Assembly (NCBI GenBank): GCA_017995275.1
Contig: JAGOJE010000001.1
Location: 1-29,607 of the forward strand
Direction: 5' to 3'
Source of the DNA: Rickettsiaceae bacterium
GTDB taxonomy: Bacteria; Pseudomonadota; Alphaproteobacteria; Rickettsiales; Rickettsiaceae
DNA length: 29,607 bases
Part shown: piece by piece, positions 651 through 28,882 of the stretch
Numbering within the stretch: the stretch's first letter is position 1
Layout: the number at the start of each line of letters is the position of its first letter
The notes under the pieces: generated by a model
What the model was told of the DNA's origin: nothing
Database searches by the model: none
The model's input: only the letters and a program-made list of their open reading frames with translations
Position numbers and translations under genes: made by a program

Positions 651-1250
651 TCAAGAGTTGTCATTATAGTTTAGTGTGACCTTCCAAATGCCTGTAGTTA
701 TTGTATTCCAGTTCACTGTTGGAGTAAGGCTGAAATAAACCCCGGAAGCTGTAGATATAGGAGATACCATAGCGCTCATAGACGATATTAGTCCTGCCGT
801 TTTAACATCATTCATTGGGAAATACTCATCCGTACCACTCGATCTTCCTGATTCACAATAAGCGGAACCACTATCAATTGATTTAAGACATTCTATTTGT
901 ACAGATGTTATAAGAGCCTTGCCAGGTATGAGTGCAGCATCAGCCTTCATTAGTATAGACTGCTTATTCATATTGGCCGCAGAAGTGAAAAAATGATCTA
1001 CCGTAACTCCCGACATAGAATCTCCGGATATAGCTAACACGGCCGAAACCTTTCTTACCGGCATAGAACCAATCGTAGATGAGAGGCTATCAACCGTTGT
1101 GTTCAACGTATAAATCTGCTCCATGAGCAACTTTAGATCGTTGACTATTTTTTCTCTTATATATTTATTATCAGGAGTATCAGACCCTGGCAGTTTAAAC
1201 ATCTCTGTGCTTCTCAGCTTATTAATCAACTCCTGAAGGGTAGTAGGCAT
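651..1250 (-). CDS. Hypothetical protein, probably virion (fibre/appendage-associated)
   Basis: 199-aa ORF with a helical/coiled-coil-like N-terminus ([23 protein letters not shown]) and a Ser/Thr-rich beta-type C-terminus. It ends 4 nt before the fibre ATG. Confidence 0.7.
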
Positions 1251-1278
1251 GATATACTTTTCTTAGTGTGATATTTTT

Positions 1279-1286
1279 CAAAAGTA
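1279..1286 (-). promoter_or_regulatory. Bacteroidota sigma-A-type -7 box (TACTTTTG) for the leftward fibre operon
   Basis: Matches TAnnTTTG on the minus strand, 28 nt upstream of the ATG at 1250. Confidence 0.65.
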
Positions 1287-1328
1287 TATCAGATGTTAAT
1301 AATGTTTGTTACAAAAAAACATAACAAT
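1279..1328. repeat. Dispersed intergenic regulatory repeat, copy 1
   Basis: 1279-1323 aligns ungapped to 25533-25577 with 39/45 identities, followed by CAAT after a 1-nt indel. Confidence 0.85.
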
Positions 1329-1346
1329 TAAACATTTTGTATATTT

Positions 1347-1354
1347 TACATTTG
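1347..1354 (+). promoter_or_regulatory. Bacteroidota -7 box (TACATTTG) for the rightward three-gene cassette
   Basis: Matches TAnnTTTG, 20 nt upstream of the ATG at 1375. Confidence 0.65.
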
Positions 1355-1374
1355 TATTATTTATCTGATTAATC

Positions 1375-10560: not shown

Positions 10561-11229
10561 TTATAGTCCCCAATTACTAATGTCATTGCTATACTTAGAA
10601 GGATTCAATGGATCCTCTCCAATAATATTGCTACCTTCTATCTGGTTGCTTTGGTTCCTTGAACCGCTAAAAGCAGCTTGCATACCTAAAGCACCTAATC
10701 CACCAATAGCATTATTAATATTTGTTTGTTGCTGGCGCAACGCATTTCCATAAGCGTTTTCAAGTTGAAATCTCCTTTGTATCCTAACTTCATCATTCAT
10801 CCTTTTAATGTCTTGCAACCTGCCTGCTATCTGATCGGCGTACTGTATCTTTTCTTGTTTAAGTCTGGCACCTTGTGCTGCCAATTGATTAATAGCACCG
10901 ATACTGTCTGAATTATCCATAGCATTGATAACGCCGGCTATCTGCCCTCCTCCAACATCTTTAGCAGCCTGCAATCTTGTATTCTGAGTTCTTGATAAAT
11001 CCTGACTAAATGCTGCTTTTTCCTCTCCTGAAAAACCAAAGCCGGCATTGCCTTCTGCTCTTGCATAAGCATTTCTTAGCTCAGGGGATATACCAAACTC
11101 AGGCATGGGTTGAGAATTAAGTTCTGCCAAAGCCTTCTTCGCTTTATTCTTTTCTGCTATGCTATTTCCGATTTGGTAAAGCTGAGCGGCGGCAGATATT
11201 CCTAGTCCTATGGGTACTAATGGTGGCAT
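10561..11229 (-). CDS. Small cargo/DNA pilot-like ejection protein
   Basis: 222 aa, Ala/Gly/Gln-rich. Hydrophobic Gly-Ala helices at the N-terminus (PLVPIGLGISAAAQL) and near the C-terminus (AIGGLGALGMQAAF) fit the first, membrane-penetrating ejection protein of podoviruses. Confidence 0.7.
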   Translation of the reverse strand: MPPLVPIGLGISAAAQLYQIGNSIAEKNKAKKALAELNSQPMPEFGISPELRNAYARAEGNAGFGFSGEEKAAFSQDLSRTQNTRLQAAKDVGGGQIAGVINAMDNSDSIGAINQLAAQGARLKQEKIQYADQIAGRLQDIKRMNDEVRIQRRFQLENAYGNALRQQQTNINNAIGGLGALGMQAAFSGSRNQSNQIEGSNIIGEDPLNPSKYSNDISNWGL

Positions 11230-11292
11230 ATTAATATGTATAAGTTTTATTTATAAACAAAATCGTTCTATATGTAAATGTGCTATAGTACA

Positions 11293-12630: not shown

Positions 12631-12662
12631 CAAAATTAATGTTTATTAATCAAATTATACAA
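12631..12662 (-). promoter_or_regulatory. Possible internal Bacteroidota promoter TTG-N21-TAATTTTG
   Basis: The 57-nt AT-rich gap contains TAATTTTG (12638-12631), with TTG 21 nt upstream, 16 nt before the TTG start. Confidence 0.45.
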
Positions 12663-20784: not shown

Positions 20785-20820
20785 CAAAAAAGCCCCTACT
20801 AAAAAAAATGCAAGGGCTTT
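20785..20820 (-). terminator. Intrinsic terminator/attenuator hairpin immediately before the portal AUG
   Basis: Minus-strand RNA AAAGCCCUUGC-AUUUUUUUUA-GUAGGGGCUUU forms an 11-bp stem with 2 G-U pairs (these become mismatches on the plus strand). A U6 tract and GC-AUG follow. Confidence 0.7.
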
Positions 20821-20858: not shown

Positions 20859-21908
20859 TCACGCTTGCCCTGCCATTTCTGCTTTTTTCTTTTCAATTAC
20901 AGCGTCCTCTATCTTTTGTTTCAATGTCTCTTTAGATATGGTCACAATCTGCCATCCTTTCACTCCCAAGGCTTTTGCCTGCTCTCTAAGTGGCCTTAAC
21001 TCATCTTGTCTCATCATCTCTAAATCGTGCTCCTCTCTCACCCTAGCATCGCGCTCAGCCTGGCTAACTTCTTTGCTTTTCAACGCCTCTTTAGGCACCA
21101 CGCTTTTTTCTTTAACATCTCCAAGCAATTCACTTACATCAATATCATCTTCGCTGCCTAATGGTAAAACGTCTCTATCTCTCACCTCTCTTTCAATAAA
21201 TCCTTCGTATATTTTTTTGTTGTCTTTGAAATAAGCAACCATGTCATTAACGTTTCTTCCCACTTGCTCTTGTCCTGCATAGTATAGCCCGTTTCTGTTT
21301 TCTATAATTCCCATAGACAATGCCTTTTGAACGTTTACAATAATATCCCTATCAGGGTTTTGAAACATTCTTATAGCATCTTCAGGGTCATGCATTAAAA
21401 TTCCAAGTTCAGTTCCGGGAACAACAGAGCATAATTTCAAATAAATCTGTTCTGCCGTTAAACTAGAAGCATCATGCCCGAACAAATAAGCGATATTCTT
21501 CATATCATTTATCTTCATATTGCTCACCATATTGGCAACAACTTGCATATACTTATTACGCCTTACGTTCTTAGCAATGTCTTTATAAATATCAATGATC
21601 TCATAATAAGGAGTTGCCAGGCAATTGGTATTGCCATCACATTTACACAAATTATGTCTTTTCAACTTATCAATCCACATGACTTGCTCATGCACGGTAT
21701 CATCATAAGCAATCTCTAATCTGTTCATCTTGCCGTCAAAAACAAATTGATATAACTTTTCATCCTTGGTAATATCTCTATTCATGGCAAGTTTCCAATT
21801 GGCTAAAAGGTGCACATTCTGATTGCTATGCTTGTCATAATAACTTCCGGAGAAGGTTAATGCGTGTGATGATTTTTTAAATGGTTGTAAGATGATTTTT
21901 CTGATCAT
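20859..21908 (-). CDS. Conserved capsid-gene-linked protein of crAss-like phages (gene 75-type) with C-terminal Rho-N/HeH-like domain
   Basis: 349 aa with DP...VQKALSMGIIE...LYYAG..QVG...VAYFKDNK. C-terminal LRPLREQAKALGVKGWQIVTISKETLKQKIEDA. Confidence 0.6.
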   Translation of the reverse strand: MIRKIILQPFKKSSHALTFSGSYYDKHSNQNVHLLANWKLAMNRDITKDEKLYQFVFDGKMNRLEIAYDDTVHEQVMWIDKLKRHNLCKCDGNTNCLATPYYEIIDIYKDIAKNVRRNKYMQVVANMVSNMKINDMKNIAYLFGHDASSLTAEQIYLKLCSVVPGTELGILMHDPEDAIRMFQNPDRDIIVNVQKALSMGIIENRNGLYYAGQEQVGRNVNDMVAYFKDNKKIYEGFIEREVRDRDVLPLGSEDDIDVSELLGDVKEKSVVPKEALKSKEVSQAERDARVREEHDLEMMRQDELRPLREQAKALGVKGWQIVTISKETLKQKIEDAVIEKKKAEMAGQA

Positions 21909-21921
21909 TGGTTTTATTTAT

Positions 21922-21962
21922 AAAAATTACATGGGCAGGAAAAATATCCCACCCATGTAATT
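21922..21962 (-). terminator. Strong intrinsic terminator after the capsid gene pair
   Basis: Perfect 11-bp arms AATTACATGGG/CCCATGTAATT, extended to about 16 bp by G-U-containing pairs on the minus-strand RNA. Loop UAUUUU, U-tract at the 3' end, 10 nt after the stop at 21973. Confidence 0.85.
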
Positions 21963-21972
21963 AAGTTGCTTT

Positions 21973-22992
21973 TTACATAGCTGCTGAACTTGCGATAGTA
22001 GCAGTATCCGAACCGCTATCAGTCACAATGTTTTTGAATTTCTTCATCAACTCAGCATCAAAAGTTGCGAAGTTTGTAGCATACCCTGTAGAGGTTGAAG
22101 AAGCCGCTTCCTTCACCCATAGAGTATGAACAGAAGCTCCTACTTTTTCAGTTCTGTTAACTGCTGCATCATAGGTAACTTTATACGATTTGTACAATGC
22201 CCCTGAAGTTGCTTTCTCTCCTGCTGCAACAAGGTCCGCACCTTGTCCGTAAGCATAACCGGCTACTTTTACCACAGTAGCAGTAGTAGTTCCGGTAACG
22301 CCCGCAAGAGTTGTTTGACCGTCTACACTAGCAAGTGAAAACGTATTTGCCGCAAGATTGGTAGGGATAACACGGTATGTTCCGCTTGCAAGTTTTGCAT
22401 CATCAGCAGAAGTGATTGTGAGTATGCTTCCTACAGTTAATCCATGGGCCGTAGCAGTAAGTACTGAAGGATCCGCCACAGTGCTTGAAGCAATAGAAAC
22501 ACCTGCCATATTAGCGGCAACGGTTACATTGGTATTTCCTGATAAAGGAATCGCAATTAGCGGAGCTCCTTTTCCTGCAACCGCAGATACGGTTACAGAG
22601 TAACTACCTCCATGAACAGATACAGCGCTAAGCGGCTTAGAGTTGTTTACTATAAGAGCCAGATTAGTACCGATATCAGTATTAGAAGTAGATGCACCGG
22701 TAGTATAGCTGATAATGGATTGAACAATCTCTCCATTAGCTAATTGCTGAGTAACGGTGAACCTGTATTGTGTGTTTGCCGCACCACCTGTTGTCCAGCT
22801 AACAGTATACGATTGTACTGTTTCTGGGCGAGATGGTTTGCATATAACACTGTAAATGTCAGGATACAAAAACTCCGGAGTTACTGTTCCGTTGTTTGCA
22901 TCATTAGAGATTTTTAGTTTGCGTGCTGCAAGGGTAACATCTGCTGCCCCGCTTGCAATTGTGTCTAACACGCTGCTTGATATAGTATTCAT
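21973..22992 (-). CDS. Auxiliary capsid/decoration protein with an inserted FCCH-like domain
   Basis: 339 aa, Ala/Thr/Ser/Gly-rich beta protein directly after the MCP and before a strong terminator. Size and TDIGTNLALIVNN helix resemble crAss auxiliary capsid proteins. Confidence 0.65.
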   Translation of the reverse strand: MNTISSSVLDTIASGAADVTLAARKLKISNDANNGTVTPEFLYPDIYSVICKPSRPETVQSYTVSWTTGGAANTQYRFTVTQQLANGEIVQSIISYTTGASTSNTDIGTNLALIVNNSKPLSAVSVHGGSYSVTVSAVAGKGAPLIAIPLSGNTNVTVAANMAGVSIASSTVADPSVLTATAHGLTVGSILTITSADDAKLASGTYRVIPTNLAANTFSLASVDGQTTLAGVTGTTTATVVKVAGYAYGQGADLVAAGEKATSGALYKSYKVTYDAAVNRTEKVGASVHTLWVKEAASSTSTGYATNFATFDAELMKKFKNIVTDSGSDTATIASSAAM

Positions 22993-25511: not shown

Positions 25512-25532
25512 GAATAAATATTAGTTTATTCA

Positions 25533-25540
25533 CAAAATTA
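25533..25540 (-). promoter_or_regulatory. Bacteroidota -7 box (TAATTTTG) for the head-tail operon
   Basis: TAnnTTTG on the minus strand, 21 nt upstream of the scaffold ATG. Confidence 0.65.
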
Positions 25541-25581
25541 TATCTGTTGTTAATAATAATTGTTACACAAAAACATACAAT
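25533..25581. repeat. Dispersed intergenic regulatory repeat, copy 2
   Basis: 39/45 identical to 1279-1323. Confidence 0.85.
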
Positions 25582-25596
25582 GATATATTTTTTATA

Positions 25597-25604
25597 TACT
25601 TTTG
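25597..25604 (+). promoter_or_regulatory. Bacteroidota -7 box (TACTTTTG) for the HTH-terminase operon
   Basis: TAnnTTTG on the plus strand, 19 nt upstream of the ATG at 25624. Confidence 0.65.
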
Positions 25605-25623
25605 ATATAATAATACAAATCAA

Positions 25624-25890
25624 ATGACAATTACAGAACCAGATCAACTAACAAGAGAACAGATAGTTCTACTATGTAAAACCAACATGGAAAACATCAG
25701 AAAGAATGTTGAAAAAATAATGATGGTCAAAAAAATCAATCAGACAGAATTAGCCAATAGGATAGAAAAAGAAAGGACCCATATCAATTATATACTAAAA
25801 AATAAACACAGCAACATATCTGTAAAGACGTTGGTAGCCATATCGGCCGCCCTTGGAACATCTGTATCAGAAATAACTAAAAACCAATAA
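25624..25890 (+). CDS. XRE/Cro-CI family helix-turn-helix transcriptional regulator
   Basis: NIRKNVEKIMMVKKINQTELANRIEKERTHINYIL...NISVKTLVAISAALGTSVSEI matches the HTH_XRE pattern. Confidence 0.85.
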   Translation: MTITEPDQLTREQIVLLCKTNMENIRKNVEKIMMVKKINQTELANRIEKERTHINYILKNKHSNISVKTLVAISAALGTSVSEITKNQ

Positions 25891-25892
25891 CA

Positions 25893-26228
25893 ATGTACAC
25901 AAACAGAACTCTTCTACAATTTAATGACGAATGCCAAAGGATGCAAGGAACCATCATTGGGGAATTCTTTAGACCTAAAATCAGGCAATTCTATAACGAC
26001 AACAACATACGCCTAGATACTTTATTCAAGAAAATGACTGCTTTAAAAGAAGAACATTTTGAAATAGAAGGAGAAGGAGACTATAAAAGGGTAAAAACAT
26101 ATACTCCAGAACCTATTGATGGCGTTGCTCAACAGCCCAAACCGGTAATGAAAGAAGGCAAAACGGAAGATGACTATACCAAAGCCTTTAACGAACTAAT
26201 GGATGGAGAGGTAAATATTAAGATTTGA
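25893..26228 (+). CDS. Hypothetical phage protein
   Basis: 111-aa ORF with an A-rich leader, in a tightly packed operon. Confidence 0.7.
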   Translation: MYTNRTLLQFNDECQRMQGTIIGEFFRPKIRQFYNDNNIRLDTLFKKMTALKEEHFEIEGEGDYKRVKTYTPEPIDGVAQQPKPVMKEGKTEDDYTKAFNELMDGEVNIKI

Positions 26229-26467
26229 TATACATGCCACAATCAATGGAAAAAAAATTTAAAGTATACCCACCAATGATGCCAAATTTTGTCCGATTTG
26301 AAATGGGGGACGGAACTAAACAAGACGGAATAGAATCACAAGACGGATTTGACATAGCAAAATTCACACAAGAAGAAGCAAAGGAGTTTGCAAAGCTAAT
26401 GCATGACACTTTTATAGAACATTATAAAAGATGTAAGAAAGGAAAATCTTCAAAAGGAAGCTATTGA
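26225..26467 (+). CDS. Hypothetical phage protein
   Basis: 80-aa ORF with an ATGA-type overlap. The true start may be a downstream Met. Confidence 0.6.
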   Translation: MIYMPQSMEKKFKVYPPMMPNFVRFEMGDGTKQDGIESQDGFDIAKFTQEEAKEFAKLMHDTFIEHYKRCKKGKSSKGSY

Positions 26468-26503
26468 TTCTAAACATATATCATTTAATAAAATCAAAAA
26501 CAA

Positions 26504-26848
26504 ATGCTAACAACAAAAGAGATAGAGGAATTAGAAAAGCTATCTGATAAATACCCTGCCGTAAACGCTATCCTTGATTTCTACAAGGAGATACAGAATA
26601 ACGGGGCTAAACTTCTATTTATTGAGATCAATAACAAACTGTCACAATTAGCTAAAGAGATAAAAAAATCAGATATAACAATAACAGATGATAAAGACGA
26701 TAAAAAATTCGACCGCTTCCTAAGACTATCTGTAGAAATGGAAACCATACTAAATAATAACCAAAAAATGCAGGATTACATAAACGGAATAACCGAAGAA
26801 AAGAAATTGAAGCCTAAAAAAGGACATGAAGACAAAGTAGTATTCTAA
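26504..26848 (+). CDS. Helical protein, candidate terminase small subunit
   Basis: 114 aa, all-helical/coiled-coil, TAATG-coupled to TerL. Function inferred from position only. Confidence 0.45.
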   Translation: MLTTKEIEELEKLSDKYPAVNAILDFYKEIQNNGAKLLFIEINNKLSQLAKEIKKSDITITDDKDDKKFDRFLRLSVEMETILNNNQKMQDYINGITEEKKLKPKKGHEDKVVF

Positions 26849-28686
26849 TGCTAATAATAGATAACATAAAAGAAAAGAGCCCTATTTTGGTACATAAACC
26901 AAAACCAACATTCAGAACTGCACTGGAAAAAGAAAGGTATTGGGAGAAAGAGAAAATAAAATGGATAGAAGGAGTTGGCGATATACCAGGAACATTATAT
27001 CACAAAACCCAGGAGCAGTGGATAAAAGATAGAAACTCAGGAGAGATACTACGCCCTATATGCAGAGATGCGGATCTGCTCATTCACCAAACGATAAGAG
27101 ACTGTAGAAAAGAAGGAGAGGCTCTTGTGCTTATCAAAGGGCGCGGACTTGGGCTCTCTGTAGAATTTGGATGCCTTACGAACTACTTCATGAGAGTATA
27201 TCCCGGAACAACATCTCTCATCACCTCTCAGGAAAAAACAAAGATAGCCGCCCTATTCTCCGAAAAAATTGCTGTCACATACGATAAATACGATGAAGAC
27301 ATAAAGCCGGTACAAATCAATAGAAACGAAACGACATATACTGCCGGAATAAAAGTTGAAATCTCCTATAAAGACAAATACGGAAATGTTCAAACCAATA
27401 TATCTCAGGCAATATGCAGAGATACATCAGACCGCCCAGAGAGCGCATCAGCCTTCTCTGGACAAGGAGCGATACTAGGTTGTTATGATGAATTATTCCT
27501 ACATAAACGCCGCAAAGAATTGATTCGATCTTCCGCCTCTTGCTATATAGATCAAAAAACAAAACAGACGACAGGGTTTTTATTCTGCGGAGGAACGGTA
27601 GAAGATACACTCACCAACGAACAGCTATCTGAACTTCAGGTTCTTATAAGAGAGGTACAAACCACTGGACGACTTGGTACCATGAAAGCAAGACTTCTAT
27701 TCATACCTGCATGGATGGGAACATTTATGACCAATGGGTGGAGCGATGAACGCAAGGCGAAAGAATATTGGGAAAAAGAAATAGAAGCCTTAGACAAACT
27801 AGAAGACAAGTCAGCCGTTCGCGCTTACAAAATGAACAACCCCATGTCCTTGGATGATATATTCCAAATGACCGGAGGGGGCAAATTTGAAGAAGATGTA
27901 ATTGAAAAAGTAAAGGAACAAAAGAAGATAATACTATCACAAAACATACCTATAACAAAATGCAAATTAATAGACATGGGCCATACAGTAAAATCAACTG
28001 TAGACTTTAAAAATGGCAATGTTCATGTATTAGAAGAGCCAAAACAAAGTGTTTCTTACTTCTTGGTAATTGACGGGGTTGCAACGGGTAAAAAATCAGG
28101 TAGCGAAAAAGGGTCTAATGTAGCAGGGACCATAGTAAAAGCATTTGACCCATCTACCCAGCCACACATGCCTGTATGTATCTATACAGAAAGACCGGAA
28201 ACCGTGGAACAAAGCTATATCAACCTATTGGCTCAGGCAAAATACTATAATCAATACGGGGGATTGAAAGGAATAATGGCGGAGGGAAATGCCGGAAATG
28301 CTGATCACTTCTTCACCTTCCTTCAAAAGAATGGATATGAAAAATATGCCATGGTAAGGCAGGATCTATCAGGAAAAGGTATAGTAAATACCAATAAAAC
28401 ATTTCAATATGTAACCTCAGATATACGGGACTATCAAATGAAACAGGCAAACATGTTTCTAAGAAAATACATTGACAGCATAAAAATGGTAATGCTCCTG
28501 GATGATATGCTAAAGCCATTAAGCGAGAATGCCGACATATTAGATAGCTGGCTCATGTATTTCGTAGCCAACAAAGATTATGATAAGCCACTTATACAAA
28601 AGGTAACAAAAATTAAAACGCCTACATATACCCTTTCAAGAGATTCATCAGGAAGAACAGTATGGGTAGAAAAATATGAGCAATAA
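26848..28686 (+). CDS. terL: Terminase large subunit
   Basis: 612 aa. Walker A-like LVLIKGRGLGLS, Walker B-like LGCYDELF, and RNase H-like nuclease acidic motifs FLVIDGVATG, IMAEGN and NADILDSW. Confidence 0.9.
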   Translation: MLIIDNIKEKSPILVHKPKPTFRTALEKERYWEKEKIKWIEGVGDIPGTLYHKTQEQWIKDRNSGEILRPICRDADLLIHQTIRDCRKEGEALVLIKGRGLGLSVEFGCLTNYFMRVYPGTTSLITSQEKTKIAALFSEKIAVTYDKYDEDIKPVQINRNETTYTAGIKVEISYKDKYGNVQTNISQAICRDTSDRPESASAFSGQGAILGCYDELFLHKRRKELIRSSASCYIDQKTKQTTGFLFCGGTVEDTLTNEQLSELQVLIREVQTTGRLGTMKARLLFIPAWMGTFMTNGWSDERKAKEYWEKEIEALDKLEDKSAVRAYKMNNPMSLDDIFQMTGGGKFEEDVIEKVKEQKKIILSQNIPITKCKLIDMGHTVKSTVDFKNGNVHVLEEPKQSVSYFLVIDGVATGKKSGSEKGSNVAGTIVKAFDPSTQPHMPVCIYTERPETVEQSYINLLAQAKYYNQYGGLKGIMAEGNAGNADHFFTFLQKNGYEKYAMVRQDLSGKGIVNTNKTFQYVTSDIRDYQMKQANMFLRKYIDSIKMVMLLDDMLKPLSENADILDSWLMYFVANKDYDKPLIQKVTKIKTPTYTLSRDSSGRTVWVEKYEQ

Positions 28687-28882
28687 AAGGAAAATAAATA
28701 AACCATTAACAAAGGTCCCTCTGTCTGATACAGAATGGAAAATAATAATGGATATAAAAACACGCTATCTGCATGGCAATACAATGTTAAAAGACATTGC
28801 TTCTGAATATAAAATGAGCCTAAGTATACTTAGAAACTATGTGAATATGGCTGTAGAACAAATAAAGAATAATCAAAATTAA
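28676..28882 (+). CDS. Small HTH DNA-binding protein
   Basis: 68 aa; TMLKDIASEYKMSLSILRNYV fits an HTH (xxxIAxxYxxSxxxxxxYV). Confidence 0.6.
   Translation: MSNKRKINKPLTKVPLSDTEWKIIMDIKTRYLHGNTMLKDIASEYKMSLSILRNYVNMAVEQIKNNQN

Follow-up and report, generated by a model that had tools for sequence, protein, structure and literature searches.

Homologous pairs of putative back-to-back promoters, sharing a conserved 9-nt sequence, in two divergent gaps of a wastewater crAss-like phage

Two divergent intergenic gaps in a single phage contig, separated by 24 kb, carry almost the same stretch of DNA, and the question is what this shared stretch does and which genes it serves. The window analyzed here is a complete contig of 29,607 nucleotides (29.6 kb), the largest of the 187 contigs in a 1.1-Mb bin. 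Its gene map consists of four outward gene blocks arranged around the two gaps, at 1251-1374 and 25512-25623. The window belongs to a crAss-like phage, as indicated by a 1589-aa protein that matches crAss_MUZ (2.6e-33) and a 216-aa protein that matches CrAss_Ring_2 (2e-9); the Crass_capsid and ring families were found in related contigs. Since the contig corresponds to about half of a roughly 60-kb genome, the statement that these are the only two divergent gaps is true for the window and not for the whole phage. The relatives used for comparison, about a dozen contigs, were gathered via homologues of the cargo protein and of the large terminase subunit (TerL):

26848-28686, plus strand: large terminase subunit (612 aa), whose predicted model (pLDDT 87) matches T4 gp17 (E 8e-16)

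By sequence, this 612-aa protein gave zero Pfam or PHROG matches. The phage is frequent in wastewater and activated-sludge data sets. INPHARED phages yielded no DNA or tblastn match to the window, TerL or the portal, scans of IMG/VR with single proteins gave no match, and a TerL profile search returned just three distant IMG/VR contigs and none of the species genomes. The region at 11154-11292 is a strain-variable cassette in which about 137 nt are swapped for about 555 nt in strain L020 and in contigs from runs X16 and X17, the longer version coding for a 146-aa protein without a family match. About 240 nt (26247-26488) are missing from contigs of runs X15, X17 and X2 with loss of the 80-aa ORF at 26225-26467, which constitutes a natural deletion variant. 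Two relatives possess a tyrosine integrase (Pfam Phage_integrase; L009:16699-17595 and L013:10040-10930), which hints at a temperate lifestyle.

An earlier, sequence-only reading of this DNA had paired 1279-1323 (copy 1) with 25533-25577 (copy 2), and its coordinates and counts were all reproduced. The two segments are identical at 39 of 45 positions without gaps, with CAAT following after a 1-nt indel, and this is the best repeat within the window. None of 2000 dinucleotide shuffles of both gaps reached 39 matches, the maximum being 32. Beyond the 45 nt a looser, indel-containing similarity extends up to the rightward boxes. As claimed, each gap has two outward-facing TAnnTTTG boxes, 60 nt apart in copy 1 and 56 nt apart in copy 2, and three of the four promoters have a TAACAA that begins 25 nt before their box. 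On the minus strand, the 45 nt common to both copies comprise a T-tract, TAACAA, a 19-nt spacer containing TTATTAACA, and a -7 box, which together make up the entire upstream half of the predicted leftward promoter. The features of the two gaps, and the gene that begins the rightward unit of copy 2, are as follows:

1279-1286, minus strand: copy 1 leftward -7 box TACTTTTG, before 651-1250 and a fibre-like gene; predicted start ~1274
1294-1302, minus strand: copy 1 9-nt element TTATTAACA (TGTTAATAA on the plus strand), 7 nt upstream of the leftward box, about -28 to -20
1306-1311, minus strand: copy 1 TAACAA (TTGTTA on the plus strand) of the leftward promoter, in the -33 position, with 19 nt between it and the box
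1312-1321, no strand: copy 1 central A/T tract CAAAAAAACA, abutting the upstream side of the -33-position hexamer in both promoters
1322-1327, plus strand: copy 1 TAACAA of the rightward promoter, in the -33 position, with 19 nt between it and the box
1347-1354, plus strand: copy 1 rightward -7 box TACATTTG, before three genes of unknown function (1375-2995); start predicted at ~1359
25533-25540, minus strand: copy 2 leftward -7 box TAATTTTG, before a 370-aa gene, the capsid genes and genes further on; start predicted at ~25528
25548-25556, minus strand: copy 2 9-nt element TTATTAACA, 7 nt upstream of the leftward box
25560-25565, minus strand: copy 2 TAACAA of the leftward promoter, in the -33 position
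25566-25575, no strand: copy 2 central tract, with the sequence CACAAAAACA
25597-25604, plus strand: copy 2 rightward -7 box TACTTTTG, before the XRE gene through TerL; predicted start ~25609
25624-25890, plus strand: 88-aa XRE-family HTH protein (Pfam HTH_3, 3e-7), first gene of the rightward unit of copy 2

TAnnTTTG at -7 with TTTG or TTG at -33 is the housekeeping promoter of the Bacteroidota sigma factor sigma-ABfr, as cited in PMC7366714 and PMC9723704. In the window TAnnTTTG is rarer than expected (23 found versus 37 expected), and 5 of the 23 boxes fall within the 596 intergenic nt, all directed toward the next gene (P 8e-5; 0.006 when adjusted for composition). When 12 related loci were added to the window, tandem gaps contained 26 sense versus 6 antisense boxes, and boxes lay a median of 21 nt from the start codon. 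Operon heads in the dozen or so related crAss-like contigs nearly always have a box 13-31 nt before the start codon. Divergent gaps of relatives have outward box pairs at varied spacing, namely 56-60 nt, 14 nt in L016, 4 nt in L021, and crossing in G002. The divergent gap L016:326-396 is a perfect 21-nt inverted repeat with both -7 boxes inside it and a central A-run, an arrangement that reads as a fully symmetric bidirectional promoter. Intergenic enrichment, sense orientation, recurrence in relatives and a match to the mapped middle promoters of phage phi14:2 bear out the claim that the boxes behave as Bacteroidota-type promoters, and those in the window very probably function as such. As the box spans -12 to -5 in Flavobacterium psychrophilum (PMC9723704), transcription is predicted to begin near 1274, 1359, 25528 and 25609, so that host RNA polymerase would start about 5 nt after each box. 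Three wastewater RNA runs contain the phage as assembled contigs that bridge gap 2 at flat depth and hold genes of both strands, a pattern which resembles DNA carry-over and is uninformative on start sites.

The -33 region of these promoters departs from the Bacteroidota consensus. By eye, TTG or TTTG is absent 18-21 nt before the box at all four promoters in the window, as had been reported, and TAACAA occupies the site in three of the four. Absence of a canonical -33 had been taken as a special sign, an argument that loses its force as a genome-wide -33 motif could not be detected in Flavobacterium johnsoniae either, the element being known as dispensable or undetectable in flavobacteria (PMC7366714). 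The arrangement TAACAA-N19-box has three occurrences in the window phage and was otherwise found in near-identical strains, together with a TTACAT variant in L009.

What distinguishes the shared stretch from a pair of boxes is the 9-mer in the spacer. Three relatives with 65% TerL identity (L009, L013 and L014) have the same arrangement as gap 2, the capsid operon lying to the left and an XRE gene to the right. These gaps keep the left box, a spacer of 7-8 nt, TGTTAATAA, TGTTGATAA or TGTTAGTAA, and the right box, and cannot be aligned with that of the window elsewhere. The orthologues of the copy 2 9-mer are TTATTAACA in L009, TTATCAACA in L013 and TTACTAACA in L014. TTAyyrACA is thus located 7 nt (8 nt in L014) before the box in five promoters, with 7 of its 9 columns invariant, a degree of conservation reached by none of 1000 shuffles. 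A strict composite, TTAyyrACA-N6-9-TAnnTTTG, was searched for in 268 kb of loci and occurred exclusively in gaps except for one coding site; the gap sites were the two gaps of the window, the same gap of L020 (a 96% strain), and the capsid-operon gaps of L009, L013 and L014. The 96% strain has TTATTGACA at the copy 1 9-nt element. Scans of IMG/VR and JGI metagenomes with the element pattern returned chance matches in coding DNA plus the near-identical strain L049. The close strains L020 and L049 are too alike to reveal selection, having 2 changes in 124 nt versus 2.6-4% overall. The homology of the modules in the two gaps stands as the sequence-only reading had it, and parts of them are conserved in relatives.

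Its position within the polymerase footprint and its conservation amid diverged surroundings make the 9-mer most likely a protein-binding site. The shared element is likely to be functional beyond its boxes. On balance the comparison favors a reading in which each gap is a compact back-to-back pair of sigma-A-type promoters, homologous between the gaps, with the 9-mer as the likely site of a protein. The leftward promoters would initiate transcription of the fibre-like genes from copy 1 and of the capsid, portal and tail genes from copy 2, and a protein bound to the 9-mer, at about -28 to -20, would time or boost transcription of virion genes. Such a protein could repress, or it could activate by substituting for the -33 contact.

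Alternatively, the promoter region could have been copied by illegitimate recombination or gene conversion, in which case the -7 boxes would be the only parts that matter and the rest would reflect recent common descent. The copies are 87% alike, which is more than the orthologous gaps of relatives, and the second copy is absent from the gap-1 equivalents of L016 and L021, with no duplication in G001 and G002, as expected if the copying were recent. Simple descent does not readily account, however, for a 9-mer held at fixed spacing in three relatives with unalignable flanks, nor for the non-uniform identity between the copies, which is concentrated on the side of the leftward promoter. A neutral relic is therefore unlikely.

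How widely the two-copy layout extends bears on its history. The gap-1 equivalents of the more distant relatives L016 and L021 have no element and have boxes 14 and 4 nt apart. L015, in which the neighboring protein is 71% identical, has kept the rightward box and the 9 nt downstream of it (leader), and the rest of gap 1 is not kept. In the IMG/VR relatives G001 and G002 no pair of intergenic regions scores above 15, where the window scores 27. The layout is consequently not a requirement of the family, and the duplication into the fibre gap looks private to the lineage of the window. A separate relative, L011 (52% TerL identity), has its own 14-nt word, ATAAAATTTATGTA, in three copies distributed over two divergent gaps (L011:5459-5621 and L011:8975-9191), one copy being exactly 7 nt before the -7 box of the capsid operon. 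In G002, the IMG/VR contig of L018, small genes of the non-structural arm at about 57.6-61.6 kb on the minus strand are without -7 boxes and have a TAACCCCTTAA-like word near their start codons, often with CACGTTAGTA upstream, which may represent a class of early promoters.

A different account of the shared stretch places its functional core between the promoters. It was suggested that a dimeric phage protein, for example the 88-aa XRE protein, binds the inverted repeat TTGTTA-N10-TA(A)CAA in the center of each gap and thereby co-regulates four outward operons from two switches. The XRE gene opens the rightward unit at copy 2 and at the corresponding gaps in L009, L013 and L014, and TAACAA is symmetric in copy 1, where the repeat is exact. 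Copy 2, however, has TACAA, so that this part of the description holds for one copy and is imperfect in the other. The repeat is at chance level in both, given that a 6-nt inverted repeat occurred in 57% of shuffles of copy 1 and that the 5 nt which copy 2 reaches at best were equalled by 92% of shuffles. Folding of the inter-box regions showed no excess (z -0.28 and +1.40), and L009, L013 and L014 have no such palindrome in their orthologous gaps. Its presence in the window follows from TAACAA occupying the -33 position of each of the back-to-back promoters, around a common A/T tract. Conservation, moreover, is on the leftward promoter only. Relative to the rightward start the 9-mer is located at about -61 to -53, and copies 1 and 2 differ by 4 nt in their spacing to the rightward box. 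The leftward unit of gap 2, which runs from capsid to cargo genes and is the largest in the window, is also divided by features of its own:

12631-12638, minus strand: internal -7 box TAATTTTG preceding the tail ring 2 gene; canonical TTG 21 nt upstream of the box, shared element absent
21925-21962, minus strand: terminator-like hairpin with U-run behind gene 21973-22992 (-24.1 kcal/mol, z -5.3)
20789-20820, minus strand: terminator-like hairpin with U-run behind gene 20859-21908 (whole gap -22.5 kcal/mol, z -4.4)

A simple terminator scan missed both hairpins, which are likely attenuating terminators of the capsid block. Taken together, the one-sided conservation, the internal box and the hairpins tie the element to two leftward transcripts for virion proteins rather than to four units, and the notion of four units governed by two switches is not sustained. 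Since the leftward promoters of copies 1 and 2 head the fibre-like genes and the capsid, portal and tail genes, respectively, the element marks the two main virion-gene transcripts. A dimer acting through the central palindrome is a distinctly unlikely explanation.

Assignment of these promoters to a Bacteroidota-type sigma factor depends in part on the host. The remainder of the bin has TATAAT and TTGACA at proper distances and Shine-Dalgarno words before 29% of its long ORFs versus a background of 10%. A Shine-Dalgarno word precedes 1 of 22 phage genes, which is what a Bacteroidota host would lead one to expect. Because the bin has Shine-Dalgarno and TATAAT/TTGACA signals and the phage has neither of these but has TAnnTTTG boxes, the contig is probably mis-binned. 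Promoter type, the missing Shine-Dalgarno words and the crAss-like genes lead us to infer a Bacteroidota host. The T9SS tail domain was unmatched in the bin, as it was in the controls.

If the host were instead not a member of the Bacteroidota, for example the organism whose genome makes up the bin, the element could be a -35/-10 promoter of the sigma-70 type, either GTAACA-N18-TATAAT or TATACT in the leftward direction, or TTAACA-N17/18 and an A/T-rich -10. Besides the TATAAT, TTGACA and Shine-Dalgarno signals of the bin, this possibility draws on a scan that scored GTAACA-18-TATAAT at 25566-25537 as 10 of 12 and on TCAACA-N18-TATAAT seen by eye in L013. The -35-like words are without the key TTG, however, and it is TAnnTTTG, not TATAAT, that is common to the operon heads of all relatives. 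The phage genes differ from those of the bin in being without Shine-Dalgarno words, and to our knowledge all cultured crAss-like phages infect Bacteroidota. Promoters of the crAss-like phage phi14:2 were transcribed in vitro by E. coli polymerase (bioRxiv 10.1101/2020.03.07.982082), which is a point in favor of sigma-70 recognition. Sigma-70 promoters read in a host outside the Bacteroidota are very unlikely overall. A candidate promoter of the ECF type was rejected by eye, as TGTAAC is present but there is no CGT-type -10.

Least probable of all, and very unlikely, is a non-transcriptional element in both gaps, such as a site for bending by an IHF/HU-like protein, for packaging or for replication, which could make use of the A-tract and of TATyAAC..CTGATA, by eye loosely like the E. 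coli IHF word in three of five sequences, and which would suit the IHF-like proteins encoded by crAss-like phages (phi14:2 g073), but which sits poorly with the weakness of that resemblance to the consensus, the fixed spacing to the -7 box, the same orientation of both copies relative to the leftward gene, and the finding of no recognizable IHF-like gene in the window.

If the 9-mer is a protein-binding site within a leftward sigma-A-type promoter, the protein that reads it could be encoded by the phage. A dedicated phage factor is a serious candidate, toward which we are slightly more doubtful than confident. The 88-aa XRE protein is the sole recognizable DNA-binding protein in the window by Pfam and PHROG, and the second HTH protein that had been proposed at 28676-28882 receives no support from either collection. 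L009, L013 and L014 each encode an orthologue of the XRE protein at this location, and the His, Tyr and Ile of the putative recognition helix are invariant. Among the relatives, L013 and L014 also encode a protein of about 210 aa with histidyl-tRNA-synthetase-like domains (tRNA-synt_His and tRNA-synt_2b; L013:4996-5628 and L014:14779-15420), and the gene in L013 directly follows the XRE gene. All four phages with the 9-mer have an XRE gene next to it and none of three phages without the 9-mer has one there, but the four form a single clade and the association is thus confounded by descent. That the factor is the XRE protein itself is only tentatively proposed and is rather doubtful. Equally speculative is a broader scheme in which TTAyyrACA, placed 7-8 nt before the -7 box, would define a class of virion-gene promoters without a canonical -33 in a wastewater clade of crAss-like phages; its reader would be a protein of the phage, in the simplest case the XRE protein, serving either as a repressor that sets timing or as an activator in place of the contact by sigma region 4, and the promoter would subsequently have been copied to the fibre operon.

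The sequence-only reading held that this architecture had not been described for crAss-like phages. Extended motifs at middle and late crAss-like operons are in fact already published: in phi14:2 and 13 other genomes such motifs are common to the middle and late operons, which are transcribed by the host RNA polymerase, and in phi14:2, the one crAss-like phage for which 5' ends have been mapped, the middle promoters located by primer extension consist of an A-tract, TTG, N20 and TAnnTTTG (bioRxiv 10.1101/2020.03.07.982082). As in phi14:2 and its beta-crassvirinae relatives, several virion and packaging operons of the window phage are preceded by repeats of an extended motif. Repetition of this kind extends to two full copies, a third promoter with TAACAA-N19-box, and the core in L009, L013 and L014. 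The order of parts is likewise that of phi14:2, with an A/T tract, a -33 hexamer, a spacer of about 20 nt and a TAnnTTTG box, and the host polymerase would be expected to recognize them; the copy 1 tract at 1312-1321 may be UP-like, as in the tripartite promoters of phi14:2. Unlike phi14:2, which has TTG at -33, the window phage has TAACAA there and has in addition a conserved 9-mer inside the spacer. Its copies also differ in being symmetric back-to-back pairs, and two to three motif promoters are present in the roughly half of the genome seen. The new features are therefore two sequence words, TAACAA for the -33 position and TTAyyrACA for the spacer, along with the symmetric back-to-back packing and the intragenomic duplication.

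Further comparisons help to place the element. The window promoters resemble Bacteroidota housekeeping promoters in having the exact -7 consensus 13-31 nt before start codons without Shine-Dalgarno words, and they differ from them in having no TTG or TTTG at 18-21 nt and in having conserved spacer sequence. In the middle promoters of phage T4 a MotA box precedes the -10 by about 12 bp, and activation occurs through sigma appropriation by MotA and AsiA. By analogy of function, the window promoters are similar in that they lack the canonical upstream sigma contact and have a conserved 9-bp box at a fixed distance, whereas the box is nearer (7-8 nt) and the host sigma is of another type. No homologue of MotA or AsiA was found by Pfam or PHROG among the proteins of the window, which is without the non-structural half of the genome. 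In the immunity regions of phages 434, P22 and lambda, regulators of the XRE family bind operators of the Cro/CI type, and such repressors usually bind within the promoter footprint. The likeness to the window lies in a small XRE HTH gene that abuts divergent promoters and a conserved site within the promoter footprint. In contrast to those operators, the window element has no significant dyad symmetry, is located in the capsid-terminase region and is duplicated 24 kb away.

The finding reveals no new kind of regulatory system. Compact bidirectional promoters of this sort are possible parts for Bacteroidota genetics. For the crAss-like phages, the switching on of virion genes after the early phase is known in outline, and the use of the host polymerase with an extended motif has been shown in one model phage. 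To this the present analysis adds, in a phage lineage that is abundant and widespread in wastewater, a short cis-element composed of the 9-mer and the -7 box, a natural duplication of that element, and one candidate gene for the protein that may read it.
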